From: Biomphalaria pfeifferi
Taxonomy: Eukaryota
Assembly: GCA_030265305.1 (NCBI GenBank)
Contig: JASAOG010000079.1
Span: 237,331-301,330, forward strand
Reading direction: 5' to 3'
DNA: 64,000 nt
The stretch's first letter is position 1. The number at the start of each line of letters is the position of its first letter. Below the pieces are notes generated by a model that worked only from the letters and a program-made list of their open reading frames with translations, was not told the origin of the DNA and made no database searches. Below, piece by piece: positions 8,217-58,037 of the stretch. The translations under genes and the position numbers were made by a program.

Positions 8217-8219
<3 letters not shown>

Positions 8220-23323: not shown

Positions 23324-23418
23324 GTGTCAGGATGATTATACATAAGATTTTTCCTAATTTTTGGCTTATCTCCTTTGGCATGTTCAAGACTCTGTTTACG
23401 ATGTGAACCTTGAGGCAG
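23324..23418 (-). CDS. ATRN: ATRN-like terminal coding exon (GSHRKQSLEHAKGDKPKIRKNLMYNHPDTCA*), stop TGA at about 23324-23326
   Basis: Acceptor cctcaag|GT in phase with the preceding exon. The C-terminus '...PDTCA*' parallels human '...AQPGTCI*'. Confidence 0.7.
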
Positions 23419-23479
23419 AAATACAAAAACATCATTTAGTACTAAGGCATCACACTGTACACAAAATAATATTAAAATA

Positions 23480-23600
23480 TACTAAAGGTTTTAATATCGT
23501 AATATCTATCTATATATCTATCTATCTATATATTTATATATCTATATCTATCTATCTATATCTATCTATCTATATATATCTATCTATATATATTGTACTA
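23480..23600. repeat. Compound (TATC)n/(TA)n microsatellite in the last attractin intron
   Basis: Direct reading. ORF 23361..23678 is spurious. Confidence 0.9.
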
Positions 23601-23602
23601 AC

Positions 23603-23756
23603 CTATAGCAACAAATGCACTACCAACTGCAAGCCCAGACTGTCCACAAGGAGCAAACACAGCATCACCAGTTGGTAGCTGTATAAATAGGGTAAGAATA
23701 GCCGCTTTGTGGTCAGCAAGAGGCTCAATGGCAATTGCTGAAGGTTTACTCATCAT
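23603..23756 (-). CDS. ATRN: ATRN-like exon: cytoplasmic tail (MMSKPSAIAIEPLADHKAAILTLFIQLPTGDAVFAPCGQSGLAVGSAFVAIG)
   Basis: ORF 23598..23792. Acceptor ttatccag|ATG, donor ATAG|GTTAGT. Matches human 'IALEPCFGNKAAVLSVFVRLPRG...PPPGQSGLAVASALVDIS'. Confidence 0.9.
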
Positions 23757-24399
23757 CTGGATAAATATGTAAGTAATATTAATAAAATACACTTAGTAAC
23801 AGGTAGACAAAATTCACCAAATTTAGAGATGAGCACAGTTCAGCCCAGAAAGAAATATTTAGTGCTGTTCAAAATACAAGCATTATATGATCTGAAGATG
23901 TTTAAGTCAGTTACGCTAGATTTTATTGGTTCTTTGCCATAAGTGCCATTTGTATGTTTAAAAAATATAATGCAATGAGTTGTCACAATTTGAGTACTAA
24001 TCTATACTATAAAGTAGAATGTAAGGCATATGTATGTGCCGAATAGAAATAATAACCGTTTGACCAAAATAAAACTTGGCATAAATGTTCCTTGGGTACT
24101 AACTTAGACCGTAGTGTATGTATTGTAGCCCTAAAACAAACTTAAGACCCTCAAAAAAAAAGTTGACCAACTCTATGAAAGTATGCTATTTTATGAATCT
24201 AGGCTATGTTTACCATGTAGACATGAGAAAAGATTGAAAGGATTTAGATCTGGATCTAATTTTAAGAACTACATTTTGCACATATAGTTTTCTACTTTGA
24301 CACATGAAAATACAAATTATAGTCTATTGATTTCATTATTTAATAAAATTAAGCTTCAAATTTGTGTTTCAAAAGCATTTTTACATAAATTCGTTCTTC

Positions 24400-24485
24400 A
24401 TATCTGCGAATTATGCATGACGCGTAGGACGTAATCATCTTCTTTTTTGAAGTAACGTCTGTATTATATAAGAATTTAGAATTCT
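24400..24485 (+). mobile_element. LINE 3' tail remnant
   Basis: Carries 'tgcatgacgcgtaggacgtaatcatcttcttttttgaagtaacgtctgtattatataag'. Confidence 0.7.
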
Positions 24486-24893
24486 TGACGTACATGCTCT
24501 CATTAGACATTACCCGAAAGGTTACACATCTCTCTATTCCTGGGTCTAAACCTCTAATACAACTTTTAAGATGATAGAACTTCTCTTTGCTAAGATAGTT
24601 TTATACTTTAACACATGAACATACTAATTATAGTCCATTCATTTTATAATTTAATCAAATTAACATTCAAATTTGTTCTTCTAAAGCATTTTTACATGAG
24701 TGCAACTCTATTCTTAATATCGTGTGAATTCAGGTCAATTAGCTATTTTTAGCTCCATTCATAATATTTTTTATTCATGAATTCATGCATTCGCTTTACT
24801 TATAACATTAATATTTTCTTTAATTGTTTCTAATACACTATATCAGTGACTACCGTATTTTTCGCCGTATAAGACGCACTTTTTCTTCTCCAA

Positions 24894-24925
24894 AACTGGG
24901 GGGGGGGGGGGGGGGGGGGGGGGAG
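24894..24925. repeat. G30 homopolymer followed by (GA)4
   Basis: Direct reading. Confidence 0.9.
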
Positions 24926-25790: not shown

Positions 25791-25954
25791 TGATGGGAAA
25801 TGATGACAGACTGAAATTTTAATGTCTTTGAAATTCACAACCACTAAACTAGTTGACAGCTCAAGAACATCCATTTTACAGTGACCTTGACATATATTAC
25901 CAAAGTCTAAGCTGTTATATACCTTACATATGATATATTACAAACATAACTTAC

Positions 25955-26095
25955 TTTTTTTCTTCTTCGTAGCACTGAATCCAGATGATCTTTTTTCTCT
26001 CCAGATATTATCTGATTGTGAGTCTTGTGATCTATTTCTACAGATATAGTGGAGAATGGGCGACTGGCCATTTGTTGCATTTCCACTATCAATTG
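25955..26095 (-). CDS. ATRN: ATRN-like exon: cytoplasmic tail with MASRPF motif (QLIVEMQQMASRPFSTISVEIDHKTHNQIISGEKKDHLDSVLRRRKK)
   Basis: ORF 25907..26092. Acceptor caacccag|CAATTG, donor AAAAAA|GTAAGT. MASRPF is the signature motif of attractin-family cytoplasmic tails. Confidence 0.9.
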
Positions 26096-26507
26096 CTGGG
26101 TTGAAACAAATAAGCAATGATGGGTTTAAAAAAAATTAAATTTACAGTATGTATAAAAAAAAATTAAGTTGAAACTAGTATTACAAAAAAAAAAGTTGAA
26201 ACAAGCTAACTATCTAAGGAGTTAAAACAAGTACATAATAATATAAACTGAGATGTATAATATTGTTAGATTTTAAATTAATTTTTCCACATAATTCTGG
26301 TTCTTTTTGTATCTAGACATAAACATTAACCTTTTGGGATATAGGATTCTTAAAAATGAGGAAACCTCATTTATGCTAATAGTTTAACTTTAAAAAAAAA
26401 AAATATGTATGCTAACATTTTTTGTTGTACTCTTAGAATTTAGAAGCACTTACAACCTGAAGGTAACTTCAAACAAAGGTTGCTGATTAAAGAATGAGAT
26501 ATTTTTG

Positions 26508-26510
<3 letters not shown>

Positions 26511-26582
<72 letters not shown>
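26511..26582. repeat. (AT)n microsatellite, about 35 units
   Basis: Direct reading. Confidence 0.95.
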
Positions 26583-26590
<8 letters not shown>

Positions 26591-26699
26591 TCTGAAATTA
26601 ATATGACTAAAATATTTTATACAAAAAGTTATGAGTTGAAAAAAAAAAAAAATTTTTCTTAAGAAGCATGAGTAAATAATATTTGATGAAATCAAATTC

Positions 26700-27206: not shown

Positions 27207-27285
27207 CTGTCTTCTCCTATAGCTGTCATACTTATGTTTTATTTTCCATAATGCAGCTGCAATCAGGAGCAAAGATAAAAAGCAG
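27207..27285 (-). CDS. ATRN: ATRN-like exon: transmembrane C-terminal half plus stop-transfer (CFLSLLLIAAALWKIKHKYDSYRRRQ)
   Basis: Within ORF 27159..27470. Acceptor gtttgtttcag|C, donor GACAG|GTTAGA. Matches human 'SCFLSLLLVAAVVWKIKQSCWASRRREQ'. Confidence 0.85.
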
Positions 27286-27652: not shown

Positions 27653-30535
27653 AATATATTTGCACTAACTTGAAAATAATAATACCCCCCCGCCCTCCAA
27701 AACTAGTTTTCATATTTTTCCCACAGAGTATCATTCCATGGATAATCATCATAAATTTAAGATAAACTTTTAAACATTAGTATACACATAATGTTTTAAC
27801 AAATGATAATTTTATCAAATCTATTAGAAAGATTAATTTATTTTAAAAAAAGGTTCTTCAAAAATAGAATACTATGTATTTTACACAACTTTATCATAAA
27901 AAGCTAATCAACTAATCAAGAATAAAGTCATCACAACTAATAGGAATTCTGCTTTATGATACATATTATATATAATTTATTTTTATGTTTAATTGACTTG
28001 CTTTGATTTTAAATTTGTTATGGCTAAAATAATTTTGAATGGAACATCATCATTTACAACAGCAACAGGTCACTTATCTATAGTGACACATGGAAATACC
28101 AACACATGCAATATATAGAAACATCAACCTTACTATACAATGAAAACAAAAATTAAACACAACTATCAGCCAACCAAGGAAAGAACACAAAGGTCAAGGT
28201 TAAAAAAAATTACACTAGCAAGGTGTCAACGGACAGTTCTAGGAGCACAAGCTAATGTTCAGTTCTGAGGTCACATAATTAATGAAGCACAGTTTTCAGG
28301 AAAACATACTAATTAACAGTTTTTAAGTCAAAGGAACATGAACATGGTAATTGTTGACAAACAGTTTGCTCTAGTCACATACTAAAGGACAATGCCCAAG
28401 GAAAAGGGTTATGGTCATTCTCAAGTTCATAAGTTATTAAGCCAATAATCAGTTCCAAGGACACAAGTGACCTAGTTTCCAGGCCATTGACTAACAAAAA
28501 AGTTCACCTGTTCCCAGGTCAAATGTTAATAGATCTTGGATCACATGTTAAAAATGTTCCTAGGTCAAAAGCTATTATTTAAAATTAATTCATTTTTTTT
28601 ATTTTCTAAGGAATGTTATTAAAAATATTATTTTCTTGGTGTGTATATATATATATTTAGATAAATGATAGTTTTGAAAAATAATATGAAAGATAAACAC
28701 CTTAAAAAAATATAAATTTTTAAACTAATTTGTCGAAAAATACAAGTAAAAAATAATCAAGCAAAGATTTAAGCAAGACTTTATTTTAATCATTATAGTT
28801 TAAGACTTTATTTTAATCATTATAGTTTTCTTACTAATAGTTACACCAAAATAGTGGTTTAATTCTTCAGTTATTTATGATCAATGTGGTCCTACCCATC
28901 TTTCATTAATTATAGTTAAATTTTAAAGAATTGAACATTGTAAACTATTTATCAAATGATTGTAAAGAAAACTTAAATGTAGGATTCTGTCAGCACTTAC
29001 CTAAAGAAAATAATAAAAAACCTAAGCAGATTGATTTTTTCAGGCTGAACAAAAGAAATCTGTAAAATAAGGCAAACAATTGAACAAATGGACACATGCA
29101 ATGGTGTGTTAGTAGAAAGCATGGATTGAGGGCATTTATCTAGGACTGATTCCATTCTCAATTAGCAAGTTTGAAAGAAATAAAAATACCAGTATTGTTG
29201 AAGTTTTATCACATTTAAAAAAATTAATTAATTTTCTTTGGGCATATAAGTGCATAAAGGAAATAATATCAAGAAAAAGGTAATTTAAAAAAATGAATTT
29301 CAAATTTTCATGATAATGGATGCGGAAGGGCGTTTTTATGACTTCTTTTGAGAAGGATTGCTAAGACTTGTGTTGGTTTCTCATTATGTCTGTTATTTAA
29401 AAAATAGCAATTGCTTGTGTACAGAGTAAAATAAATGAAATGAATCCAAGATAAAGCTTAGTTTATTGCATGGATGGGTTTTTGTAGCCAACTCAAAAGT
29501 TTACAGACACAGATACATTTTCCATTTTCTTTACTGGTAAGCAATGTGTGTATGTGTGTAGGGGGAGTGTAAAAGCCCACACCCAACTCAAACACACACA
29601 CACACTTCAACTTTAAAATGCAACCAATCACCTACATGCAGTAAACTAAGCCATGCCACAATCATGGAAACAATAATGTCACAATCATGGAAATAATAAT
29701 GCCAAAATGATGGAAACAAAAACATGAAAAGAAAATAGCAAACACAACAATAACTGGGAAGTCAGAGCAATGGGAAATCAGCCTTTGACAAACACATTGA
29801 AAAAAAAACAACTGTTTGCCAAGGTTGTCATCCCAGTTTACCTACCTAAAAAATGTTACAAAAAAGTGAACTAGATCTATTTTTGGAAACTGTGAAAAAG
29901 ATATCTGAAAAAATATATCCAATAGAGAGTATTATGTTCAGTGATGTACCTTTAGTTTAACTGTTTCAGACATAGATCAAGGATGAATAGCTGACAAAGA
30001 CCAAAGGAAATATGAAATAAAGGCAAATCATAAAATCGGAAAAACAGAGCCAAAATCAAAGGCATCCTTTTTTTTAAAGCCTTAAAGTTGTTTGTACACT
30101 CTTTGGTTAAGGAATTGCAGTCAATATACAGTTGTTAAAAAAATTAATTTAAGGATTATTTTACAAATATTCTCAATAAACAGAAAATTCCCAACAGATC
30201 TATTCTGAAATATGCCCTGAAACAGGGTGGGGCTTTAAGATCCCAACAGATATTTTAAAATATGCCCTGAAACAGTATAGGGATTTAAGCAGATCTATTC
30301 TAGATTAGCCCTAGTAGGGATTTAAGCAGATCTATCAAAAAGTGTCAGACTTTCATATCACAACAGGTCTATTAAAAGAAAACTTTTGTTTTACAGAGTG
30401 AATAATCCATTTAGGTGCATTCTTGGCCATAATTTTATTTGTTTTCTAAAGAAGTCTTAATTTGAAAAAAAAATAATTTTAAAGGCAGTTTCAAGATTCT
30501 AAGATGGTCAGTATGAAATAAGTCTACAATTTTAC

Positions 30536-30687
30536 CTGCAACATAAAAGGTGTTTTAAAGTTGAAGACATAGACCAAAAAAGTTGTGTTCTCCTTGCCTC
30601 CAAACACATGATTCTTATGTTCAAACTTAGTGCGGAAATATTCACAGGGTTTCATAGAAGTGTATTCTTTTTCCTCTGGAAATGTTT
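30536..30687 (-). CDS. ATRN: ATRN-like exon (KTFPEEKEYTSMKPCEYFRTKFEHKNHVFGGKENTTFLVYVFNFKTPFMLQ)
   Basis: Within ORF 30524..30724. Acceptor tgtgtttcag|AA, donor TTGCAG|GTAAAA. Matches human 'IKEYKDSFSNEKFDFRNHPNITFFVYVSNFTWPIKIQ'. Confidence 0.8.
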
Positions 30688-30798: not shown

Positions 30799-30868
30799 TA
30801 GATTTATATGTTATGTTTATTAAGGCCCCAGTTGAACAATTTAAAGTAAAGTCAACATCTCTGTCACT
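30799..30868 (-). CDS. ATRN: ATRN-like exon (SDRDVDFTLNCSTGALINITYKS)
   Basis: Acceptor ttgactcag|A, donor TCTA|GTAAGT. Matches human 'NRDLDMFINASKNFNLNITWAAS'. Coordinates ±3. Confidence 0.65.
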
Positions 30869-33189: not shown

Positions 33190-33284
33190 AGACAAAGGTA
33201 TATTTAAAAAGTTGATTTGAGTGAAATTGATGTCTTCTTTCTTGGACAAGTTGAATGTATACTGAAAATCTGTATTCAATGGAT
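33190..33284 (-). CDS. ATRN: ATRN-like exon (YPLNTDFQYTFNLSKKEDINFTQINFLNIPLS)
   Basis: Acceptor ttttttcag|AT, donor TCT|GTAAGT. Matches human 'YTLLIDYQFTFSLSQEDDRYYTAINFVATP'. Confidence 0.75.
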
Positions 33285-34957: not shown

Positions 34958-35013
34958 AATAACAAGTGCCTCCATCTTTTGGGTTGCCAGAATACTTATT
35001 GCTGTCATCACAC
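34958..35013 (-). CDS. ATRN: ATRN-like exon (KCDDSNKYSGNPKDGGTCY)
   Basis: Acceptor ctcttttag|G, donor TATT|GTAAGT. Matches human 'CEVENRYQGNPLRGTCY'. Confidence 0.75.
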
Positions 35014-35264: not shown

Positions 35265-35358
35265 TTTTCACAATTTTTCCCAGTAACACCACGAGTCCTA
35301 CAGAAACATTCTCCACTACTTGGGTTACATGTATCAGCTTGACCATTACAGGAGCATG
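35265..35358 (-). CDS. ATRN: ATRN-like exon: laminin-type EGF 2 (ACSCNGQADTCNPSSGECFCRTRGVTGKNCEK)
   Basis: Acceptor ttgttttcag|CA, donor GAAAA|GTAAGT. Matches human 'PCKCNGHASLCNTNTGKCFCTTKGVKGDECQL'. Confidence 0.8.
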
Positions 35359-36366: not shown

Positions 36367-36432
36367 CAGAACACTGGCCTCCATTTTTAGCATCTCCATA
36401 GAAACCATTGCTACATTCTTCACACTCATCAC
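36367..36432 (-). CDS. ATRN: ATRN-like exon: laminin-type EGF continuation (GDECEECSNGFYGDAKNGGQCS)
   Basis: Acceptor attgatcag|GT, donor TCTG|GTAAGT. Matches human 'KHCETCISGFYGDPTNGGKCQ'. Confidence 0.8.
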
Positions 36433-36606: not shown

Positions 36607-36681
36607 CTGTAGTGTTTCCTTTACATTCTGTGCAGATATTAGTACCGTTAAAACACTTGGAGTGACCATTGCACTGACACA
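36607..36681 (-). CDS. ATRN: ATRN-like exon: laminin-type EGF 1 (LCQCNGHSKCFNGTNICTECKGNTTG)
   Basis: Acceptor tttaaacag|TG, donor ACAG|GTAATA. Matches human 'ACQCNGHSKCINQSICEKCENLTTG'. Confidence 0.85.
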
Positions 36682-37004: not shown

Positions 37005-37181
37005 ATGGACACTTCAGGAATGACCATCTCTCTGCTGCTGGACAGGAAGCTGGAATGACAGGACCAGTGGCACCTCCATCCATGCACTTGCCAGTGCCAG
37101 TCTCAGTTTCATCATTGCACCAACCACACTGAGGCTTGCTCTGACACTCTGAGCATGTCTTCTGCTGACTACAGACCATTG
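37005..37181 (-). CDS. ATRN: ATRN-like exon: PSI-like segment (AMVCSQQKTCSECQSKPQCGWCNDETETGTGKCMDGGATGPVIPASCPAAERWSFLKCP)
   Basis: ORF track 36985..37179. Acceptor tgtttag|CA, donor CCAT|GTATGT. Matches human 'CTCSHCLEQPGCGWCTDPSNTGKGKCIEG...RYNWSFIHCP'. Confidence 0.85.
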
Positions 37182-37855
37182 CTAAACATACAATACAGAT
37201 AATTTAACAACTACAATGATAATGTTACTTAAAAACTAGTACCAATCTTTAAAATCTCTTATTATACCAGTAACCAGCATATTCATAGATACTTAGGATG
37301 AAAAAGCCTAAACAGATAAATAAAATTTGAAAGACATTAAAGAAAAAAACTTAAAAAATGAATACAAAAAGAAAAACCTTATATTTTACACTCTGTATTT
37401 GATAACTAGCCACATTTACCAGAAAGGATCAAGCTACAGCTTCACATTTAATGAGTTTCACTTGGTCCTATACATTCCCAGAGGTAAGAAGGTACTAAAT
37501 ATGGCCAAATATTACTAAAAAGAGGTTATGTGGCCAGTAAAAGTGATTTGTAGAGCAACTTTTATCACTAAAAGATAAGGATATACATGGTTTTATGTTT
37601 GCCACACACAGTACATATTTATAGTACCTAGTCATAAGTAATATAATTCTAGAAGCTTAACTGACAATCAATAGTAGTCAGTAATAATAGTAGAATCTTG
37701 TATCTAGTTTTTGTGAATTTCCCTAGTGTTTTAACAGTGATACAAAAAGTTTGTATACAAAGCTTCAACATTTTAATTTGATGTCCAGTCAGGTGCACCA
37801 GAGTTTAAATGGTCAGTGTTACTACATCAGTTAGTGTATGTTAATGAAAACTCAC

Positions 37856-38029
37856 CTTGACATTCCATATTTTTAGTTGTCCAGTCCATACACTGGGCAT
37901 AATGAAACGCCACAACATAGGCATTGGTTTCCACACACTTAGCTGTGTTGCTACACCACATACATGAGCTACTTGTACAGTTCTGACAATTGCTGTGTTC
38001 ACTACAAGGTTTTTGAGGGCAGCCTGTTG
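37856..38029 (-). CDS. ATRN: ATRN-like exon: PSI domain 4 (TTGCPQKPCSEHSNCQNCTSSSCMWCSNTAKCVETNAYVVAFHYAQCMDWTTKNMECQ)
   Basis: ORF track 37827..38048. Acceptor ttaactccag|CA, donor CAAG|GTGAGT. Matches human 'CRTPCALRTACGDCTSGSSECMWCSNMKQCVDSNAYVASFPFGQCMEW'. Confidence 0.85.
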
Positions 38030-38666
38030 CTGGAGTTAACACACACACAAAAAATGGTGAATGTACTTGATAGTGTAGCAGGATTTTGACAGTCTACAGT
38101 TTTTGAAGGATAGTGTTTAAAACTGTGGCTGCAAAGGTGTTATCAATTGTATGAAAATGTGTGCAGCAAGGCCTGTGAAGTTGTTTGCAGAGTCATTTCA
38201 GCATTTGTGTTTGTAAGTTTATGTGAAGTTGTGTCATAAGTTATGAGACATTGTATTTATACCGAATATATGTAAATGTACTTTGAATTAGAAAGGTATG
38301 TGGAGTCATGTTATGACATGTAAAGTAATTTTTGTAGTTAAGTTTTTCAATACAATGGTAATGTATGTCATCAAGAAGTCAGATGTATGGTGACAATTGG
38401 CTGAAACATTAAAGAGAGATGTTTCAGGAGGAAACAATGGAAGAACATGAGCTGGAAGGACAAGAGAGTGGCTCAAATAAGTTAAGTTTAACGGATAGAA
38501 ATTTAAGAAATGAGCTTTACAAAGCACTTAGTATTTCTGAAAAAAAGTAATCATAAAAATAGAAGCACAATAAGTAAAATAGATTTTTTTTCTATTTTAA
38601 GCAAAGAATGATTTATCTTATTTCATTCAGTTTTTTAAGGGTAAAAATGATAATAAATGTACATAC

Positions 38667-38781
38667 TGCCATTTCCTGGAACACAAACATTATTTTGCCA
38701 GCTACAAGCAGTGTTGATAGCACAACTATTACATGAAGAGTAAATGCTACATGTGTCTTTTTCTGTACAGTTGCTAGGACC
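38667..38781 (-). CDS. ATRN: ATRN-like exon: PSI domain 3 (GPSNCTEKDTCSIYSSCNSCAINTACSWQNNVCVPGNG)
   Basis: Acceptor ttgatccag|G, donor GGCA|GTATGT. Matches human '[36 protein letters not shown]'. Confidence 0.75.
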
Positions 38782-39014
38782 CTGGATCAAAAACAACAAA
38801 ACTCAAAACATATTGACTAGATGGATCTCAATAATATTAATTAAAACGTATATACTGAGCATAGGTTAAAAGAAAAGATGCTATAATAATCGTTCAGTGC
38901 TCATTATAGTTCAAACTGAGAAACTCAAAAACTTTTTATTGAATGTATTTTAAATAAGTGAAAAATTATAATAGCTCTAGCCATAGCTGTAAATTTAGTT
39001 TTTGAATTCCACTG

Positions 39015-39140
39015 GGATGTGTGGCTAAAGGCAGCATGGAAACCTTCTCCCAGATATCTCTTCTAGGATGGGTCCACACAAGAGATTGGACCACAGTGCA
39101 CTGAGCATGGTATAGCATGAAAGATGGGCTATTTGAAAAA
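39015..39140 (+). mobile_element. SINE family A fragment
   Basis: 'ggcagcatggaaaccttctcccagat...gggtccacacaagagattggaccacagtgcactgagcatg'. Confidence 0.7.
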
Positions 39141-39901
39141 AAAGTGTTCCATGAACTTCAACAATGTCCAGAGTTAATTGATGTCTAATGTTTCAGTAGG
39201 TAACTTAACCCTTTTATAGCTATAATCACTTGGCATCACTAATTTCAGATTGTTTCGTTGCTGCCTACTTATTTATTAGTTACTAACTGTGGCCTCAAAG
39301 GGTAATAGTGATCCTACTTTTACTTGTTATTTGGTATTTTTAGCACTTTTGAACAGATTTATGCAAAACAAAAATATTTGTTCCCACTGCCAATGAATGG
39401 CTAATGTCCAAAGGAAAATTGGAAGTAAGCTCCTCCTTCATATCCAATGAACTTGAAGAAGTCTGTTCTTAGCTTTATTTAGATAATTTCAAACTAGGCA
39501 CAGGTATGTTGGGTCTACTGTTTTTTTAAATTTTGTTTTAGCGGCTATCCTTTTTTTGTTTTGTTTAGTTCATTAAAATACAGACACTCATGGCTTTATG
39601 AAAAGATAAGCAAATATGCTTAGCATTTCCCTGTCAAGAATGATGATTTTGCACCTTACTTGATTTTTTTTCATTTTCTTACATAGAAATTTCTAAAAAA
39701 GTATAGTGTGATGACAAAATAGAGAATTATGCCCCTTTTCTTTAGGAATGGATAGATTTTTGTCAGACAACTGATTAGTGAAATAAGTGTTCATTAGATA
39801 AGACAAGGTACTAACTAGGAAAAAAAAATGGAAGGATAAATTATGATAACAGCTAATAGCCAAATCAAGACAGAATGAAATGATATTCATAATTAAAATA
39901 C

Positions 39902-40011
39902 CTGGGAACACTTGGAGGTGGAAGTGCATTGATTACCACACCAATGACACTGGGCAATGTGACATGCTTGACAGCTGGTGTAAGTCGTACATGTTGAATT
40001 GGAATCTTTGA
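39902..40011 (-). CDS. ATRN: ATRN-like exon: PSI domain 2 (VKDSNSTCTTYTSCQACHIAQCHWCGNQCTSTSKCSQ)
   Basis: Acceptor tttcag|TC, donor CCCAG|GTATTT. Matches human '[25 protein letters not shown]'. Confidence 0.8.
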
Positions 40012-40125
40012 CTGAAACAAAAAGAAATCATGTTTAACTGCATACATATGCAGTAGTACCTAAAACTTAGGCACAAAATTTGTGTTTTCATACCTACAAA
40101 ATTCATAATATTTGATATGACTCAC

Positions 40126-40227
40126 CAGAAGTACAAGAAGTGTCCCTGATGCAGGTATTATTAGACCACTTACACTTAATGACATTCGAAGTACACAGTG
40201 TCTCATTTTGAAACATATCACAAGAAT
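40126..40227 (-). CDS. ATRN: ATRN-like exon: PSI domain 1 (DSCDMFQNETLCTSNVIKCKWSNNTCIRDTSCTS)
   Basis: Acceptor ctcttcag|A, donor TCTG|GTGAGT. Cys spacing C..C..C.W..C matches a PSI domain. Confidence 0.8.
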
Positions 40228-40705: not shown

Positions 40706-40770
40706 CTAATGTAATTTTAATTAGATCTTTTAGCAGCACAGAATTGAAGCCACCAAATATATAGGCAGTG
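40706..40770 (-). CDS. ATRN: ATRN-like exon: kelch 6 end (NTAYIFGGFNSVLLKDLIKITL)
   Basis: Acceptor ttgttttcag|C, donor TTAG|GTAGGT. Matches human 'NSTMYVFGGFNSLLLSDILVFT'. Confidence 0.8.
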
Positions 40771-42420: not shown

Positions 42421-42508
42421 TTGTTGACTGCAATCATGGAATGGCCAAAGCGATCCAAATATTCCAAATGGAGAGAAGTTGTATTGACTTTCTGCCACTG
42501 GTCACACT
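42421..42508 (-). CDS. ATRN: ATRN-like exon: kelch repeat 6 start (ECDQWQKVNTTSLHLEYLDRFGHSMIAVNK)
   Basis: Acceptor attttag|AG, donor AACAA|GTAAGT. Matches human 'ACDRWSVLPRPDLHHDVNRFGHSAVLHNS'. Confidence 0.8.
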
Positions 42509-42784: not shown

Positions 42785-42939
42785 CTATATCATACAGCAT
42801 AAAATCAGACACAAAACATTTCAGTAATGTATTATTCACAGTGTTACTGCCAAAACTGCCACCAAATGTCAATATAAAACCATTAAGAATTGCAGCAGAA
42901 TGCAAGTAACGAGGCATGCCACTACTCTGCAATTTAAAC
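42785..42939 (-). CDS. ATRN: ATRN-like exon: kelch repeat 5 (FKLQSSGMPRYLHSAAILNGFILTFGGSFGSNTVNNTLLKCFVSDFMLYDI)
   Basis: Acceptor cttatcccag|G completes the split Trp codon. Donor ATATAG|GTTAGT. Near-identical spacing to human 'FFRYLHTAVIVSGTMLVFGGNTHNDTSMSHGAKCFSSDFMAYDI'. Confidence 0.8.
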
Positions 42940-43373
42940 CTGGGATAAGACAAAATGTAATTTTATTTCATTTAGTGACATATTTAAAAATCTAGAATTA
43001 GTTCCCTTAGCAAAAAATTCAGATTATAAATTTTAGTTTCCATAATCAAAGTAATACTGCATTTATGAACATACATAACCCTTTAACCTATATGAAAAGT
43101 TTCATTAAAAAATACAAGAAAATGAAGTTGCGGAACATTAAGCATGTAAAAGTAGTCCATTACAAATGAAATTAATTAATTATTTTAGTAAAAATTTAAA
43201 ATTATTTAGACGAAAAGGAGCTTAAATAAATGCTTTATGTTAAACATAGACAAAGGTATATAATCTTATTATAAACTTTCCTTCAAAGAATAAAGAACTT
43301 AAAATTTTTGTTTTATATTGAACCTTTCTAAAAAAAATAACATCATTTGTGCAAAAAGCTTACCATTCATGGT

Positions 43374-43544
43374 TTTCAGGATCATAACTGTAGAGCTTGT
43401 CTGTCAATATGGCAGTGTTGCTCGAAGAAGTCTGGTAGCCAGCATACACAAAGAACCTATTGCTCTTCTCATCATACACACTAGTATGGGCATAGGTACC
43501 TTGGACAACACCTCTTGTGGGCACATGACTCCAATTTCTGCTTG
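43374..43544 (-). CDS. ATRN: ATRN-like exon: kelch repeat 4 (TSRNWSHVPTRGVVQGTYAHTSVYDEKSNRFFVYAGYQTSSSNTAILTDKLYSYDPENHEW)
   Basis: ORF track 43360..43605. Acceptor gtccag|C, donor GAATG|GTAAGC. Confidence 0.8.
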
Positions 43545-43846: not shown

Positions 43847-44060
43847 TAAAGTTATACTGCATAACTTCATTGATGTAACCATAGGTGTTGCTGTAGCCAA
43901 AGAAAACCAGCATTGTGTCCTGATAAATGTGAGCTGTGTGACCTGTCACATTCCAAATACCAGGCATTAGCAGAGTCCAAATATGGGTTCCCAGATTGTA
44001 AGTCCAAAAGTCATTGGCTATGTCACCTTTGTAAGTGCCACCATATAAATAGAGTGAATT
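43847..44060 (-). CDS. ATRN: ATRN-like exon: kelch repeats 2-3 (NSLYLYGGTYKGDIANDFWTYNLGTHIWTLLMPGIWNVTGHTAHIYQDTMLVFFGYSNTYGYINEVMQYNFS)
   Basis: Extends ORF 43758..43967. Acceptor tcaacag|A, donor TTTA|GTGAGT. Matches human 'KIYMYGG...VGHSAHIV...LVIFGHCPLYGYISNVQEYD'. Confidence 0.8.
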
Positions 44061-45631: not shown

Positions 45632-45707
45632 CCTTGTAATATACAGTTGAGTGTCCATATCTCAGCCACAATTCATGTTTAGACTGATTACCTTGAATCC
45701 ATTTGTT
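45632..45707 (-). CDS. ATRN: ATRN-like exon: kelch (INKWIQGNQSKHELWLRYGHSTVYYK)
   Basis: Acceptor tttaatttaacaag|C, donor TACAAG|GTGTGT. Phase 2 to phase 0 links the flanking exons. Contains the RYGHS...YK kelch motif. Confidence 0.6.
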
Positions 45708-45839
45708 GCTTGTTAAATTAAATCTAAAGGGGAAAAAATAGAAAAAGAATTATAATTTTAGTTATTTAAAACAAATAATAATAATAATAATAATAACAAG
45801 GCTAGTCTTCAAGTAGAAGATTAGTGAGGAATGCAATAT

Positions 45840-46990
45840 TTCCCGTGGTTGAACAGTGTCAGTCCCAGCTGTGACCTACATATTTTGCCACATCCAGGGC
45901 AAGCATAACCATTGTCCGCAGGTGGTCAATTTAGATTTTCTTTTCGCCGTCTGCGTTTGTCCTCGGCAGCAGATTTTCTTTTGGTCTCAAATGTGTATCC
46001 CATGGCCTTCGTGAGTGACCTCCAGCTGTCTCGTTCTGAGGCCGCATGCAACCAGGTGCTCTCTTCTATGTCAGACAAGGAAAGTTGACGCCTACGCTAG
46101 TCTTTGAAGCGTTTCCTTTTGGCGCCTCTGTTAGGTCAACCACCTTTTAGCTCACCAAAAAAGAAGGCTTTTGGCATACGTTTGTCTCCCATATGGGATA
46201 CGAGCCCTACCCAGCGTAACTGTCGGACCAAAAGAAGTCCCTCTATTCTGTCCATACCAACGTTCGCAAGGACATCGCTGTTTGTAGTGCGGTCTTGCCC
46301 CCGTATGTCCATGATGGAGCGCAAGCATCTTTGGTGGAAGCGCTCAAGAAGTCTTAGATGTTTCCTGTATTGTGTCCATGTCACAGAGCCATACAGAAGG
46401 GTTGACAGAACCACCGCCTGGTAGACAATGATTTCTGTAAGCAGGCGGAGCGATCTGTTCCGCCAAACTCTCGCCTGAAAGCGCCCAAAAGCGCTACTGG
46501 CCCTGGCCAAAGGTTTATCAACTTACCTTGAAAGTGAGGCGTCATTTGAAACTATCCTACCTAGATATATGAAGTGGTCTACCACATTAAGGGGCTGTGT
46601 TGTTTTATTGGGCGACTTCTGTTTTCCCGAGGTTTATAGATAGACCAAAAGAGGCGGCAGCGTATGCAAATTCATTTACCGCTTTCTGGAGGTCATGTTC
46701 ATTGTGAGCTAGCAGGGCGCAATCATCGGCATAGAGAAGCTCCGTTATGACCATCTCCTTTGCCTCTCTGTTAGGGCGACACCACCCATTTTAAATATTT
46801 CAGCGAGAAATCCATCAGAGCCAAGTGCCTTGTGTTTTTTTAGTTTAGATATTGCTGTCTCAATTTCCTCAGATGTCAGTGGGTCGTCGAGCTCCTCTCT
46901 CATAGTTTTCTGGGGGACATTTGCCAGCAATTCCTCCGATACGTGCCTTTTATCCCCAAACAGCATACTTAACAAAATAAATATAAATTA
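45840..46990 (-). mobile_element. CR1-like LINE, internally deleted: RT N-terminal region, then C-terminal conserved region, then 3' end
   Basis: ORF 46136..46510 (YGSVTWTQYRKHLRLLERFHQRCLRSIMDIRGQDRTTNSDVLANVGMDRIEGLLLVRQLRWVGLVSHMGD) is a typical CR1/L2 C-terminal block. ORF 46745..46975 is the RT N-terminus. The 3' end is the reverse complement of the CR1 tail seen at 35405. Confidence 0.85.
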
Positions 46991-47917: not shown

Positions 47918-48092
47918 ATAAACATATTGTTACTTTCATTGTAATCTCTCATTCTGTAACCACCCAATATAAACAATAAATCTGATTGGTCAAAGACAAG
48001 GGAGAGTGAAGCTCTTCCTGTAAGTCCCTCAGGCTGAAAAGGTTTCAGCACTTGAATATTGAGACCACCACTACTAAGGTTACAGCTATTAC
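47918..48092 (-). CDS. ATRN: ATRN-like exon: kelch repeat 1 (GNSCNLSSGGLNIQVLKPFQPEGLTGRASLSLVFDQSDLLFILGGYRMRDYNESNNMF)
   Basis: Part of ORF 47914..48321. Acceptor ctcag|GT, donor TTTAT|GTAAGT. Aligns to human 'LPRASHKAVVNGNIMWVVGGYMFNHSDYN'. Confidence 0.75.
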
Positions 48093-48639: not shown

Positions 48640-48818
48640 CAGTATAACCAGGGTTACAGATACAGCTGTCTTGAATACAATGACCCCTGTCAGAACAATT
48701 GTTTGGACAATAAGTAATTGGTATGTCACAGTGGATACCAGTCCACCCAGCAACACAATTACAGGAGCCATTGGTACATTGTCCATTTTCAGAACACTCC
48801 AAGTCACAATCATCAATG
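48640..48818 (-). CDS. ATRN: ATRN-like exon: tandem EGF-like modules (IDDCDLECSENGQCTNGSCNCVAGWTGIHCDIPITYCPNNCSDRGHCIQDSCICNPGYTG)
   Basis: ORF track 48620..48802. Acceptor ttcttatag|C, donor ATACTG|GTAAGT. Matches human 'FDMCPNNCSGRGEC...ECSENWKGEACDIPHCTDNCGF...CSCFSDWQG'. Confidence 0.8.
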
Positions 48819-49049: not shown

Positions 49050-51750
49050 AAAAATGCAACAGTCTAGTATTGACTCATCTGGAGTTTTTTTTTTATCTTC
49101 CATCGAGCACCTCCCCAGGTGGCGTACAGGAAAATGCCCTCCAGATATGGGAGGTACCAGAGAAATAAAATATCCAGAGAGGACCAAAGTCAATTTTGTC
49201 GCCTTACAGGAAGTAGAGGGACCAATAAAGGCTAGGCCACCTTACCCAAAAGTAAAAACAGCTATCCAGAGAGCTGAAAGGGGCAGCCCCCAGGTGGTTG
49301 TGTGCAGGGCTAACAACCTAGTCATATAAAAAATATTGTTACAAAACCTAAAACACATGAAAAACCAGACAGATCACAATGGAAAACTACCTATGCCTGG
49401 AAATGGACATGATTTTTGTTTTGCAACATGGAACATGCTAAACCCGTTTAGAGCTGGTATGCTAGCCCAACTCACGGAAGTGTTGAAGAAATATATTATA
49501 CCTCTTGTAGCACTACAGGAAATAAGTTGCAATCTTAGAACTAAGGAATACACAATATTTTGCAGTGGTGGCAACACCAACAATTTAGGCATGGGATTTG
49601 CTGTCGAAAAGGAATTGGAAGGAAAACCTATAAATGATAGACTCTGTTTACAATGTGTAAGAGGGAAATTTTAAACATTTCAATGTTAATGCCCCTACTG
49701 ATATTGCAGACCATTACATTAAAGAAATAAAGCATACTATTAAAAGAAGAGCAGAAGCGGGATTAAGCAGGAGAACCAGTTAATATGGTGACAAATGCAG
49801 ACGTGTGACCAATGAGAAAAACAATGCTCAGATAATAATGATACTGAGAGTAACCTGAAACACCAAATAGCAATACAATGAAACAAGAAGGGACACAAAA
49901 GTTGTCAGAAAGAAAAAAATGGGAATGGGAAAAATCTAAAATTACTTGAAGACTTACCAAGAGAGGGGGATGTGCGAGGAATGTACATAAAAATAAAGAT
50001 GAAAAGAATGGATTTCAAGCTAGATTACACATATGAGAACTGATCACATAAAGCAGCTGGATAATGGAGATATGTTCCGAATACTTTGAGGAGATCCTAA
50101 ATGCAATTAAAGATGTAGCCAATGGAGAATATGAACTGCCTCATGGAGGACCGGATGTGTTAGTAAACCTACCAATACTGAGTGAAACATCAGAAATAAT
50201 TAGGACCATTTAGAACCACAAAGCACCAGGAGATAATCAAATTACAGTAGAACTAATTAAATATGGAGGAAAAGACCTCCATTCACAAATACATGGAACA
50301 AGATCAAGAATTTGGGAAGAAATAGTTCCAACAAAATGGGAAACAGCACTAATATGTGCTGCAAAGGAGAAAAATCTGACCCAGGAAACTACAGACCAGT
50401 ATCACTTACCAGCATCACATGTAAAATCCTAGAACACATAATATGTAGCAACATCATAAACCACTTAGACAAACAAAATGTCCTCACACCATACCATCAT
50501 GGCTTTAGGAAATATAGATCATGTGAAACACAACTAATGGGACTAATTGATGATTTTTCTAAAGGTTTAGATAATAGTGAACAAATAGATGCTATCTTAC
50601 TAGATTTTTCTAAGGCTTTAGACAAAGTTCACCACCATAGTTTGCTTAAAAAATTAAAATATTTTGGCATTAATGGTCCACTACATCAGTGGATTAAAGA
50701 TTTTCTGATAGGGAGAGAACAAACTGTAATAATAAATGGCTCTAAATCAACACCAATAACAGTAAACTCAGGTGTACCTCAAGGAACAGTCTTGGGTCCA
50801 CTACTATTTTTAATTTACATAAATGATTTACCAAATTGCATTACTTCAGGAACAAAAGTCAGATTATTTGCAGACGATTGCATAATATATAGAACAATAA
50901 AAATAACACAAGACACAGATATTTTACAAAGAGAATTAGATGAATTACAGAAATGGGAATCAAATTGGAGCATGTCTTTCCACCCAGAAAAATGTCAGTT
51001 GTTAGGAGTAACAAAAAAACTAAAACAAATTAATTCCACTTATCTTATTCATGGCAAACCAGTAACACAGACTAAAAACGCAAAATACCTAGGTGTTATA
51101 ATGAATGAAAAACTGTCATGGAATCCACATATTGATGAAACTATAAAAAAATCAAACAAAGCATTAGGATTTATTAAAAGAAATTTCTATAAATCAAATA
51201 AGAACATAAAACAAAAATGTTATTTAACCTTGGTTAGGCCAATAATAGAATATGCATCCTCTGTTTGGGACCCCTCAACTCAAGAAAACATTAAGAAACT
51301 GGAACAGACACAAAATAGAGCAGTGAGATTCATAACAAATGAATATTCACATTTGACTAGAATAACACCTATAGTAAAATCACTAAATTTAGAAAGCCTT
51401 CAGGACAGAAGACTCAAAAGTAAAGTAGCAATTATACATAAAACACTGAACCATAATCTTCAAATACAAAAACAAAATTTAATAAAATACTCTGAAAGAC
51501 ACAAAGATAAAGGCACATGCCTCGTCCCATTTGCTAGGACAAATTTGTAGAAATACTCCTTCTTCCCTAGTGCTATTAGAGCATGGAATGGGTTGCCTGA
51601 GCTGGCCAAGAAAACCAGTGACTTGGCAGAATTTAAGTCATTGGTTAATATGCATGACTAAATGCATGACGGGTAGGACGTAATCATCTTCTTTTTTGAA
51701 GTAACGTCTGTACTATATAAGATAAGAGAAGATAATAATCTTAATACACA
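49050..51750 (+). mobile_element. Non-LTR retrotransposon (LINE) with APE-like endonuclease remnant, frameshifted RT N-terminus and an intact 412-aa RT ORF. The 3' end carries the tail '...agagcatggaatgggttgcctgagctggcc...gtaggacgtaatcatcttcttttttgaagtaacgtctgtactatataagataag'.
   Basis: ORF 50312..51550 carries RT motifs (YRPVSLTSI, FRKYRSCETQL, ILLDFSKALDKV, VPQGTVLGPLLF, LFADDCIIY). ORF 49336..49674 is endonuclease-like. Frameshifted RT-N 'APGDNQITVELIKYGG' lies at about 50220. Confidence 0.9.
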
Positions 51751-51779
51751 AAAAAAGATCCTAACTAAAGTGCTGTAAT

Positions 51780-52800: not shown

Positions 52801-52804
52801 TTAC

Positions 52805-53599: not shown

Positions 53600-53772
53600 T
53601 TTGTTTTACATGTTTTGGATGTTCCTTCAGAGTTGAAGATAGTTTACTTCCTAGTCCAAACCATTCGCATGATGACGGGGGATGGGAACGGGCAGGGTTT
53701 GAACCCGAGACCATCGATAAATCTGAACAACAGTCCAGAGCGCAAACCGCATGACCAGGCAGTCATCTTATC
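53600..53772 (-). mobile_element. SINE family B copy (inverted)
   Basis: Reverse complement matches family B. ORF 53582..53782 is spurious. Confidence 0.85.
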
Positions 53773-56501
53773 TTATTTATAATAATTAAAAAAATATTTA
53801 CTACAAGAGAAGACTGTAAAGTAATTCCACTATTTTATATTGTCATCCTCTATACTGTCTAAAAACCAGTCAAACAATAAGCTATTGTGCCTCTAATTGC
53901 TGTCATCCTGCAACAGTCTAATTGAATCATTTGTCAATGCTAACTTGTTTTAAAAATCATCCCTCACTACATTAAAAACCAATCTCATTTCAATCCAAAT
54001 TTTTTTTGGCCTTCACAATTTTCTCTTATTAGGTATATAAGACACCTGGTTGCTTTGTGAAAAAAGTTTCTTTATAAAGTTAGTTGTTTTTTTTCATGAG
54101 TTTATTTATAATGTCACATACTTGTAATTAAAGGATAAATATTTAAAATGTTAACTTGTTTCTATTAAGTATGGTGACTTGTTTGAATTTTTCTTTAAAT
54201 GGCCAGTAATTTTTAACTTTTTCTTTGTATGTTTCTTTCTTTCAAAGTATGGATGTTCGTTTAAAAAAAAAAAAGATTGTTGGATAATACTGCCTCATTC
54301 TCAAAAAAGATGAATACAAAAATGTTACTGTTTAAAACTATGTTATATTCTATCCAGTGAGACCATGTTTTAAGAATGAGAAACATAACAAGAACTTACA
54401 TGTATGATATATTAAAACCTGGTAATGTGAAGGCAGCATCACTATAAAAGTGAATAAACACATACTGGCTTGACATTTTAAACTTTAATTCAGGATTTGA
54501 CTTTATCTCACCACTGAAAGAAAGAAATCAGTTGATATGTTTTGGAAACCAAATATAATTAATAATTTGTTTATGAATAAGTTAAAAAATTACACTATAA
54601 AAATCATTTATAAATTTCAAATTAAACTTTTATAGTTTGGAACATATTTGAAAGATAAAATACTGTTAATTACTAATAGTTGAAGGTTCAACAGGATCTT
54701 ATATTGTCTACAATGAAATTTATAACCAATTACCTTAATATAACATTGGCTTTTTAGTAGGAAATTTAGTAGAGTAACTATTAAACAATAGTTTCATAAA
54801 AAAAATATATATAAATATATTTATTTATTTGAAGATTATTATATCCCTACCCAAACCTGATGCAGGAACACAGGGGATGGTGGTGGGCGGGGTTTGAACC
54901 CGGTTTCTTTAAATAAATGTATAGAATGGGTCTTACCCATTTAATTCAACAAATTCTGTCATCTTGAATCTTTACAGCTGATTGTCAACAGGCTATTTCA
55001 GGAAGTCATAAATTGTGCACCCTAATAAAACTCACCTCTATTTAAAAGAACACACCAACAGGCATGATTTATGTTGTCACCAGAGTCAATCCCTCTAGAT
55101 GACATTAGTTTTATTATTTAAATATCCATATTTTTTTAACTTTTGTGTCTGAACAAATTTTTGCCAATAGGGTAGAGTTATTATTTGCCAATAGTTAGAA
55201 GTATTATTATTTATTTGTTGCTATTGTATGGAAATCTCTAAACATAAATATGAGACCCTGTCTCAATGTACCGAGGCTGCAAATATCTTTTTTCTTTCCT
55301 TATAGCTGTTATTTTCTTTCTATTTTATAATGCAACTGTTCGTAGCACAACTATCCTCAATGGTATTAGCCCATTTATGCTGACTGATCCATTATTGACA
55401 CACCAACCCCAAGGTAGTTATTTATACCTTACTGCAAGGCCACTACGGGAATGGGATTTTTGTTTATTCATGTAAGCAAGCGTTCTTGGGATACTGATAC
55501 CCCTTATCATGCTGTGCACGGTTTGTCACAGCATTCCAGAGATTGGTGCCCTGTGGCTTCCTAAAAAAAATAATGAAATTTTCTGTGTATCTAAAGGCAA
55601 AGGAAATATAAATTTCCTGAATTATGTCATGTACTAACTATTTCTTTTCCAATTATTTATATGTAATAGTGATGCTGTCATGCCGTAAAAAGAACCTAAA
55701 TAAGTTATCATCATTGTATTAGTTATAAGCTTCTAATTTTGCATGTTCCATTTTTGGAACACTAGGCAAATCCAGTACCAGTATTACTAATAACAGCTAT
55801 TTCATTTAAACCTATAGAATCTCTCTAAAATCTCTGTCTACACCTCCCATGAAATGATTGTAGACTCTGATTATGTTTTCATCAGCTTTGTCTACACCTC
55901 ATATGAAGCACTAGTACAAATTTTTCCACCTAGAATAGAAAGCTACAGTAATTCTTTAACATGACTTGTTTGTCAAGAATTCTCACATACTTTTGCATGT
56001 GTTTGTTTTTGTTGTTTATATTATAGAAAAATCATTTTTCCATTTGTATAGATCAATCTAATTATCATGCACACAACTATATTTTATAATAAATTATACA
56101 AATAAATTGTAAAAACATAGTCCTTTAAATGTCTAAAAACATGACTTGTTTATTTCACTCATACTAAAATTTATTTAAAGACAGTTTGATCATTAATGTT
56201 ATTTGTCTTTAAAATACAAAACAAATAACATCAATAAAACATTAAAATGTTAAACTAGTAAAATTTGAAAGTTTGCTTTTTTTCACCAGTTGAAACTGGA
56301 ACACTTATTTAATGTCAAATTAAGCTTCAATGTCATCATAATATAAATGTAATTTTTTAAATGACTGTATCTTATCTTATATTATGCAGATGTTACTTCA
56401 AAAAAGAAGATGATTACATATAATTTATTTTTTTCATAGTGTTTTTATTTATTTATGAGTCATGTATTTACTTAAGTGCTTATGTAGTGACTCATTGTTA
56501 C

Positions 56502-56714
56502 CTGTATGCTGCTACTAAAGGAGAAAATGATGAATCTCCATCATGTATGTACAAGTGATCCCAAATACATTCTGTTATAAACTCATTCAATTTAAAATGC
56601 ACTCTAGAATGTTCTTTTTCTGCTTTCAGAAGCCAACTGCAAGTTGACTCTTGAGAATAGTTTCCAGAACCATCATAGAGAACACCTTGGACCCTAAACT
56701 TGCCATCTCTTGAG
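56502..56714 (-). CDS. ATRN: ATRN-like exon 2: CUB domain N-terminal half (SSRDGKFRVQGVLYDGSGNYSQESTCSWLLKAEKEHSRVHFKLNEFITECIWDHLYIHDGDSSFSPLVAAYS)
   Basis: Acceptor cttttag|C, donor TACAG|GTAACA. Phase is continuous with exon 1. Matches human 'GPGNYKYKTKCTWLIEG...FNHFATECSWDHLYVYDGDSIYAPLVAAFSG'. Confidence 0.85.
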
Positions 56715-57099
56715 CTAAAAGAAATGATAAAAAGTTATGGTTTGGGATTCTGTGGAGTACTTTAAATAATGTTAAATTTAAAAGAAAATATAATTATATA
56801 TATACTAGGTCACAGTTTAGATTAAAAGACATTTTAATTAAACATTTTTTTCCCAAGCACCCTTACACTGAACAGATTGTAGAGCTATAGCAACAAAATG
56901 AAAGACTTGGAATATTTATAAATATACAGTTTAAGTCTTATATTTATATAGAAATATAATATATGTATATAACATATATTAATTATTATATAACATCTAA
57001 AATTTAGAAGTTATTTATATATTCTATTAAAATTTTTATATTATATTATTATTATTAGAATAGATCTAGAATAGAATCTTAGTATTAGTTATTGCCTAA

Positions 57100-57228
57100 C
57101 TTTTAACTACTAAAAATTAATAATTTAATATTATAAGTTAAAATATATGAAAAGTAATAATTTTTTCGAAGAGGTGTCGGTATGCCGAACCGGTGCTTAC
57201 CGGCACAAAAAAAGCCCTGTGTATATAC
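57100..57228. mobile_element. MITE, same family (inverted, partial), 0.6 kb downstream of attractin exon 1 in intron 1
   Basis: The reverse complement aligns to 59250-59345 (…gtgccggtaagcaccggttcggcataccgacacc…aaaagttaggcaat). Confidence 0.6.
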
Positions 57229-57801
57229 ATATATATTGTTACTTGTAATAAAAAAAAAACACAAGAAAACGTGCACAGGCATCTGTGTCTTGCAGCTGTC
57301 AATTCTTTTTTTTTTAAGTTGCATTGAAAAAAAAACAACTTCTTTGGTCACTACCAGATCGGCCCATTTGGTGCCGGCCCACCTGGCATTTGCCCATATA
57401 GTTATAGCCAGTCCGCCCCTGTATTAGTATAGGAATATAAATATAGAGTCTAGCAACTAGCAGGAGTCTAGTATAGACTCAAGACTAGTCAAGACAATTA
57501 AAGACTGACTAAACTCACTAACCCTAAACTCGCTTTAAACTAGAAGTAGTCAGTTACACTAAAGTTACAGACAGTAGAGGTAGTTAGGTAGAAGACTTTA
57601 AGTTTAAGAAAAAAAAAAGCCTCTTTGACTCTATAACTAAACTATAACTCTAAGTCTAGTTTCTCTAGTCTAGATCTTTCTAAAATCTAAGTCTGGTTAC
57701 ACTAATTACAGTGACAGTGTAAGTGATCATCATCATGATAGTTTACATTTACAAGTAACGCTAACACGGTGTATTGACGGTATTTAGATCTAGTAATTTA
57801 C

Positions 57802-58037
57802 CTGACTTTTCCTTTGCATTTGTTACACAACTCTCCATCCCATCCTGGATCACAAAAGCATTTACTCTTATTACAAATACCTTGTTCACAATTTACACAG
57901 CTGGATGACTGAGAATTAACAAATTCCAGGAATATTGATACAAATATTATCCCTACAATAATGTGTGAGAAATATAATACATCCAAAGTCCTTTTGCACT
58001 TTCGTCTATTATTTGGTAAACATATTGAGGCAGCCAT
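57802..58037 (-). CDS. ATRN: ATRN-like exon 1: start codon, signal/anchor and first EGF (MAASICLPNNRRKCKRTLDVLYFSHIIVGIIFVSIFLEFVNSQSSSCVNCEQGICNKSKCFCDPGWDGELCNKCKGKV)
   Basis: ORF track 57798..58037 on the minus strand. Hydrophobic stretch followed by a 6-Cys EGF. Donor AAAGTCAG|GTAAAT, phase 2. Matches human 'CDRPCVNGGRCNPGTGQCVCPAGWVGEQCQHCGGRF'. Confidence 0.8.

Follow-up and report, generated by a model that had tools for sequence, protein, structure and literature searches.

ATRN and ATRNL1 serve as transmembrane adapters through which MGRN1 ubiquitylates the melanocortin receptors MC1R and MC4R (PMC12752501). The only ATRN/ATRNL1 orthologue of the fly, Distracted, requires its MASRPF motif for association with dMgrn1 in vivo (PMC8254101). 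Cryo-electron microscopy of the MEGF8-MOSMO-MGRN1 complex has revealed a stem domain that binds a tetraspan partner, a continuous transmembrane (TM)/cytoplasmic helix that spaces the ligase from the membrane, and a MASRPFA hinge leading to the unit formed by the intracellular domain (ICD) and MGRN1 (bioRxiv 10.1101/2025.09.11.675358). Attractin makes up group XI of the vertebrate proteins with C-type lectin-like domains (CTLDs), and none of the CTLD-protein groups turned out to be common to vertebrates and C. elegans or Drosophila (Zelensky and Gready, PMC514892); this is the nearest statement that our literature search returned, and the search found no paper in which the absence of the lectin from invertebrate attractins is explicitly stated. 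Here we describe an attractin gene of the snail Biomphalaria pfeifferi, located on the minus strand of a 64,000-nucleotide (nt) stretch of contig JASAOG010000079.1 (assembly GCA_030265305.1, positions 237,331 to 301,330), referred to below as the window. We are highly confident that this locus is the single-copy snail orthologue of attractin (ATRN/ATRNL1, Distracted, TAG-53), ancestrally without a lectin domain and most likely a membrane adapter of MGRN1.

The window is AT-rich (GC about 0.32) and contains no N. A six-frame reading displayed short cysteine-rich or kelch-like open stretches on the minus strand from 58049 to 23317, and we assembled these into exons by splice-site and phase bookkeeping together with tblastn using homologues. 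The resulting attractin model comprises 28 exons between 58037 and 23314, every intron being of the GT-AG type, and its coding sequence of 3525 nt translates in one uninterrupted frame into 1174 amino acids (aa). This is an intact gene and not a decaying one, as the frame stays open over 28 exons with canonical splice sites. The initial annotation of this DNA had counted 27 exons and ended the gene at 23324, which is 10 nt short of the end of the stop codon; the model has 28 constitutive exon positions plus an alternative copy of exon 24. Its two exons at 38667-38781 and 37856-38029, on the other hand, are exactly model exons 14 and 15.

The encoded protein reads, in order, as a signal/EGF region, a CUB domain, two EGF modules, a six-bladed kelch propeller, five PSI-like modules, two laminin-EGF modules, a CUB-like GBD/stem region, a TM segment, a MASRPF-containing tail and a cytoplasmic domain. 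A Pfam scan of the model identified the attractin propeller Beta-prop_ATRN-LZTR1 (PF24981, aa 287-566, E 1.6e-86), matched over the full length of the profile, GBD_ATRN (PF24972, aa 893-1004, E 4.3e-38), EGF_LMN_ATRN (PF24973, E 6.2e-14), one PSI domain (PF01437, E 4.9e-6) and EGF_Teneurin/EGF_TEN upstream of the propeller. The CUB domain (aa 79-188) was missed by the whole-protein scan and was recovered at E 4.6e-14 (PF00431) when aa 75-195 were scanned alone; the lectin of the fish ATRN P0089 (aa 788-925), equally real, was missed in the same manner. A negative whole-protein Pfam scan is consequently weak evidence for such cysteine-rich proteins. The five PSI-like modules, encoded by exons 12-16, were assigned by cysteine pattern and homology. 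A stop-free stretch at 40518-40324 was considered as an extra PSI exon and rejected: none of its splice phases is compatible, and exon 11 continues directly in frame into exon 12. The motif MASRPF was read verbatim in exon 26, and the segment running from the TM helix to this motif (aa 1007-1064) matches the solved MEGF8 chains 9qty_B and 9qqs_B. The domain order first proposed for this locus thus holds for EGF, CUB, EGF-EGF, kelch, TM and MASRPF; it had four PSI modules where there are five, and it overlooked the GBD/stem.

Comparison with public proteins supports attractin identity along the entire chain. The Aplysia RefSeq attractin XP_012937027.2 shows 55.7% identity over model residues 47-1174 (1168 aligned columns, blastp), and identity amounts to 44% for scallop, 42% for Octopus and 40% for the amphioxus attractin-like 1. 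The best matches of the model are named attractin or attractin-like 1. The Pfam domains and the full-length Aplysia alignment bear out the proposal of an orthologue in the attractin family whose domains run in the same order as in vertebrate ATRN/ATRNL1.

In vertebrates, the C-type lectin (CLECT) lies between the PSI modules that align to snail exons 14 and 15, as seen in the Xenopus protein P0001, the fish ATRNL1 proteins P0042 and P0034, and the fish ATRN P0089. It forms a block of about 130 aa in these four proteins, running from CGEGW… to …CEKP. At the homologous site the snail gene has intron 14 (38666-38030), a phase 1 intron of 637 bp that separates exons 14 and 15; exons 15-18 are phase 1-1 symmetric. 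A tblastn search of the whole 64-kb window with fish ATRNL1 P0042 gave, at E<=10, zero matches for its lectin residues (222-364). Likewise, a Pfam scan of the three minus-strand frames of 37750-40060, with X-masked stops, returned at E<=10 the exon 15 PSI alone and no lectin. Because Pfam Lectin_C had missed the lectin of the fish ATRN P0089, we built a dedicated lectin hidden Markov model (HMM) from 39 vertebrate attractin CLECTs, together with a fragment control. Run with all filters off (--max) against 2832 stop-free pieces from the six frames of the window, the HMM revealed no lectin; its top match, at E 0.034, lies on the opposite strand inside a retroelement, and the best piece from intron 14 scored E 27, indicating no lectin-like coding capacity there. 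In the control, fragments of 30-50 aa from a left-out fish CLECT were all detected at E<=2.4e-4. Finally, model residues 47-1174 form a single high-scoring segment pair with Aplysia attractin, an end-to-end match that therefore leaves no room for a missing lectin domain.

The snail attractin is accordingly without a C-type lectin domain. Three lines support this negative: the tblastn search, the dedicated HMM and the collinear alignment with orthologues. The initial annotation had also inferred this as probable and had named the correct position, an intron of about 640 bp; it is the homologous site, and it is empty. Tblastn placed no CLECT exon in 38030-38670, the interval in which such an exon would have refuted the initial annotation.

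To relate this gene to the rest of the family, 1.84 billion representative proteins were searched with the lectin-bearing fish ATRNL1 P0042, and 41 near-full-length family members were aligned with the model (42 sequences), the interval from PSI3 to the CxWC motif of PSI4 being measured in each. The interval is 70 aa in the snail model. It spans 51-169 aa without a CLECT in every non-vertebrate representative (38 of 38), and 216-220 aa with a CLECT in both complete vertebrate representatives, the Labeo ATRN and an Acipenser protein; P0093 is lectin-bearing but truncated, with an interval of 155 aa. Cluster look-ups supplied names for the lectin-less proteins: the molluscs Aplysia, Mizuhopecten/Pecten and Octopus, and, among other protostomes, Ixodes, Priapulus and the Caenorhabditis TAG-53. 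The insect homologues P0010 and P0017 also lack the domain, as do the sea urchin Diadema, Branchiostoma, the four tunicates Ciona, Phallusia, Styela and Clavelina, the cnidarians Hydra and Nematostella, and the unicellular holozoans Capsaspora and Corallochytrium. The named lectin-bearing proteins are the Labeo ATRN, the Acipenser protein, the fish ATRNL1 and the Xenopus protein.

Since the lectin is absent from every named non-vertebrate, a history of loss needs many independent events and a history of gain needs one. The simplest reading of this distribution is that vertebrates acquired the lectin once, on their stem lineage and at the PSI3-PSI4 boundary; the same distribution argues that the snail gene displays the ancestral lectin-less state and never had a CLECT. 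The snail gene falls outside CTLD group XI, and the lectin is not a defining feature of the wider attractin family. The suggestion that ATRNL1 belongs to a lectin-less branch was wrong, as the fish ATRNL1 proteins P0042 and P0034 carry the lectin. That some invertebrate members lack it was true, though understated in view of the 38 of 38 full-length non-vertebrate representatives. The further expectation that this locus would bear on lectin gain or loss did not hold up either: the distribution can already be read from annotated RefSeq and UniProt proteins, to which the snail adds nothing new, and one more lectin-less mollusc changes nothing. A snail attractin without a lectin is thus a correct and ordinary result, with an architecture already known from annotated invertebrate attractins.

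Several observations weigh against this reading. The junction of exons 14 and 15 is based on frame, phase and homology only, and the exon 14 donor is weak (GCA/GTATGT), while that of exon 15 is perfect (AAG/GTGAGT). Pfam Lectin_C is insensitive to attractin lectins, so that its negative carries little weight alone, and the dedicated HMM, having been trained on vertebrate lectins only, might in theory overlook a highly divergent lectin exon. The weak donor and the insensitive profile would both suit a lectin exon that is present but missed, whether it lay in intron 14 or at another place in the gene, or fell into an assembly gap. We regard such an exon as very improbable: there is no N in the window in which it could hide, the lectin-bearing ATRNL1 query found nothing for its lectin residues even at E<=10, and the HMM stayed blank on the coding strand yet detects control fragments of 30 aa. 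Moreover, the Aplysia, scallop and Octopus orthologues align straight across the exon 14-15 junction. Secondary loss of an ancestral lectin along the line to the snail or to molluscs is a logical alternative for which we found no support, and it appears highly unlikely, as it would demand the many independent losses noted above, across protostomes, sea urchin, amphioxus, tunicates, cnidarians and unicellular holozoans, in place of one gain on the vertebrate stem.

It might also be asked whether the locus is a working attractin at all, or a MEGF8 orthologue or a decaying pseudogene instead. MEGF8 is a protein of about 2,700 aa. The snail gene has one CUB-kelch-PSI-EGF unit in 1174 aa, with no sign of two tandem repeats, and this single unit also speaks against the MEGF8-branch placement once offered for it. 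MEGF8 does share its domain types and a MASRPF-like motif with attractin (PMC8254101). A TM-segment scan, set at 8 or more of 20 identical positions, flagged P0084 and P0086, in which this segment departs from the attractin consensus; these two proteins, possible MEGF8 members, score only E 1e-17 and 1e-12, far weaker than the attractin matches. The pseudogene version has to contend with an intact frame over 28 exons and canonical splice sites, and with a comparison to B. glabrata in which only 4 differences occur over 251 aa. Three of these are conservative (K/R, T/S, I/L), and the fourth (M/V) falls on the final position of the alignment, at which the chimeric B. glabrata entry described below leaves attractin. 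Both versions seem to us barely credible, and we retain the intact, ancestrally lectin-less attractin.

A second feature of the gene lies at the stem/TM boundary, where exons 24a and 24b are tandem copies of 59 nt that agree in phase, have good splice sites and share 39 of 59 nt. A transcript with both 59-nt exons would be out of frame, which makes the two candidates for mutually exclusive splicing. The 24a peptide is identical at 20 of 20 positions in P0006, P0008, P0016 and P0025, matches of about 60% identity, and its segment ISFSQFPKIDLVHFFVTFFS is identical in the Mizuhopecten isoform X1, which points to 24a as the ancestral version; 24b is the copy used in the B. glabrata model P0007. 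In Pecten and Mizuhopecten alike, this very 20-aa stem/TM segment varies between the RefSeq isoforms X1 and X2, and the alternative scallop segment is nearer to 24b (60%) than to 24a (43%). On these comparisons, 24a/24b looks like an old molluscan pair. The pair is mildly interesting, given that partner binding in the solved MEGF8 structure occurs through the stem/TM region, and the choice of 24a or 24b could change the membrane partner or receptor to which the attractin-MGRN1 ligase is directed.

The scallop isoforms also swap the whole PSI3 module (Pecten P0223 versus P0226, Mizuhopecten P0227 versus P0097), which sits just upstream of the vertebrate lectin site. No second PSI3-like exon was found by tblastn in the window (introns 13-14, 39901-38030).

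Two readings of the gene, independent of each other, are put forward tentatively, at somewhat less than an even chance: intron 14 as a vacant landing site for the lectin, and 24a/24b as a partner switch. Intron 14, being of phase 1, would be the ancestral vacant site into which a phase-1/1 C-type lectin module was shuffled on the vertebrate stem. If true, the snail locus would show the gene as it stood before an exon-shuffling event that can be dated.

With regard to function, the snail attractin is most likely a type I membrane protein that acts as a membrane-spanning adapter for the RING E3 ligase MGRN1. The protein retains the stem, the TM/helix, MASRPF and the ICD, and therefore a membrane-tethered ligase adapter is its most probable role. 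By analogy with the fly, vertebrate and MEGF8 systems introduced above, from whose literature MGRN1 binding and receptor clearing are carried over, the cytoplasmic tail (MASRPF hinge and following domain) would hold MGRN1 beneath the membrane. The large ectodomain, the stem and the TM segment would choose the cell-surface receptors to be ubiquitylated and down-regulated. Gene structure, domain content, lectin absence and orthology, in turn, were read directly from the DNA and its alignments; the features of the model are collected in Table 1.

Table 1. Exons of the B. pfeifferi attractin model and the intron at the vertebrate lectin position (window coordinates; slash, exon/intron boundary).
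Feature	Coordinates	Strand	Content and evidence
Exon 1	57802..58037	-	ATG start codon 58037, hydrophobic signal/anchor, first EGF-like module, aa 1-79; donor CAG/GTAAAT; cysteine pattern from sequence
Exon 2	56502..56714	-	CUB first part, aa 79-150; PF00431
Exon 3	54400..54513	-	CUB second part, aa 150-188
Exon 4	48640..48818	-	Two EGF modules, aa 188-248; PF23106/PF25024 at aa 191-253
Exon 5	47918..48092	-	Kelch beta-propeller start; PF24981
Exon 6	45633..45723	-	Kelch propeller; tblastn and Pfam
Exon 7	43847..44060	-	Kelch propeller; tblastn and Pfam
Exon 8	43364..43544	-	Kelch propeller; tblastn and Pfam
Exon 9	42785..42939	-	Kelch propeller; tblastn and Pfam
Exon 10	42421..42508	-	Kelch propeller; tblastn and Pfam
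Exon 11	40706..40770	-	Kelch propeller end; tblastn and Pfam
Exon 12	40126..40227	-	PSI-like module 1, aa 571-605; tblastn with Xenopus P0001 residues 293-319
Exon 13	39902..40011	-	PSI-like module 2, aa 605-641; Aplysia segment 42% identity, E 4e-6
Exon 14	38667..38781	-	PSI-like module 3, aa 642-680; matches the PSI preceding the lectin in Xenopus and fish
Intron 14	38030..38666	-	Vertebrate ATRN/ATRNL1 lectin position; empty here
Exon 15	37856..38029	-	PSI module 4, aa 680-738; PF01437 aa 688-736; 51% identity to Xenopus (tblastn)
Exon 16	37005..37181	-	PSI-like module 5, aa 738-797; tblastn
Exon 17	36607..36681	-	Laminin/attractin EGF 1, first half; PF24973 aa 798-842
Exon 18	36367..36432	-	Laminin/attractin EGF 1, second half; tblastn and Pfam
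Exon 19	35265..35358	-	Laminin EGF 2; 100% identical to B. glabrata P0007
Exon 20	34958..35013	-	Laminin EGF 2 end; tblastn
Exon 21	33190..33284	-	Attractin GBD/stem start; PF24972, tblastn
Exon 22	30799..30868	-	GBD/stem; Pfam and tblastn
Exon 23	30536..30687	-	GBD/stem; Pfam and tblastn
Exon 24a	29846..29904	-	59 nt, stem end and TM start, ISFSQFPKIDLVHFFVTFF
Exon 24b	29001..29059	-	59 nt, alternative copy, ISFVQPEKINLLRFFIIFF; length and phase as 24a
Exon 25	27207..27285	-	TM helix and basic stop-transfer stretch (…LLLIAAALWKIKHKYDSYRRRQ); MEGF8 PDB chains match aa 1007-1064
Exon 26	25955..26095	-	Cytoplasmic helix end and MASRPF motif, read directly
Exon 27	23603..23756	-	Conserved cytoplasmic domain (…IEPL…AAILTLFIQLPTGD…); tblastn
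Exon 28	23314..23408	-	C-terminus (…HPDTCA), stop 23316-23314; DTCA/DTCV ending common to P0006 and P0008

The model provides a full-length attractin for a snail vector of schistosomes, for which the sole close public protein retrieved is the chimeric P0007. This entry (UniProt A0A2C9JPB1_BIOGL, 'Tubulin beta chain') corresponds over residues 1-~257 to attractin exons 19-26, the rest being beta-tubulin. Its match covers window positions 35368-25943, joins exons 19-26 as in the model and reaches 98.4% identity over 251 aa with 24b, which places the source of the DNA in Biomphalaria or a planorbid closely related to it. The tubulin part of the entry has no match in the window by tblastn.

The model also helps to separate the receptor-type attractin from the Aplysia pheromone of the same name, although it matters little beyond annotation. 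That pheromone is a small secreted peptide of fewer than 100 aa, unrelated to the present protein and sharing the name alone. The B. pfeifferi genome paper sought the pheromone with XP_012937027.2 and obtained the matches BP16290 and BP22349, which were far too large (PMC10075465); a cluster look-up identified XP_012937027.2 as the large receptor-type attractin. BP16290 or BP22349 is probably the orthologue of the present locus.

The remainder of the window holds several repeated elements; retroelements and repeats were called by eye and self-blast only. Intron 3 contains an antisense reverse-transcriptase-like open reading frame of 429 aa with an FADD motif (50261-51547, plus strand), and intron 5 a degraded retroelement copy with a YADD motif (46139-46987, minus strand). 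Repeats resembling short interspersed nuclear elements, 160-560 bp long and 85-95% identical, occur in and outside the gene (e.g., 14070-14249, 20371-20550, 53602-53762 and 865-1034). A long (TA/AT)-type microsatellite, appearing as YIYIYI… in translation, is located in intron 25 (~26490-26616, minus strand), and a similar one at ~8150-8230. At 2746-4212 on the minus strand, an open stretch of 489 aa with an internal tandem repeat (…SSQSIELNGKLIR SSGSIEINDKLIR SSQSIDLNDKLIS…) may belong to a neighbouring gene as one of its exons.

Among the described systems, the mollusc attractins (Aplysia XP_012937027.2, Mizuhopecten, Pecten and Octopus) are the closest in layout, as they are collinear with the snail protein over the full length and have no lectin between PSI3 and PSI4. 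The snail protein is more compact in the PSI1-PSI3 region, with 142 aa from the end of the propeller to the PSI4 CxWC compared to 184-276 aa in the other protostomes examined, and the alternative PSI3 module of scallops has no counterpart in it. Distracted and TAG-53 resemble the snail protein in that one gene stands for both ATRN and ATRNL1 and in the exact MASRPF followed by a conserved cytoplasmic domain, but their sequence identity is only about 32-45%. Vertebrate ATRN (mahogany) and ATRNL1 share the same order from EGF-CUB to the MASRPF tail; in contrast to the snail, they contain the C-type lectin of about 130 aa and occur as two paralogues rather than one gene. MEGF8 displays the same arrangement of stem, TM segment, single alpha-helix, MASRPF(A) hinge and ICD, whereas its ectodomain is built from two tandem repeats (bioRxiv 10.1101/2025.09.11.675358) instead of one unit and its sequence is distant from that of the snail attractin.

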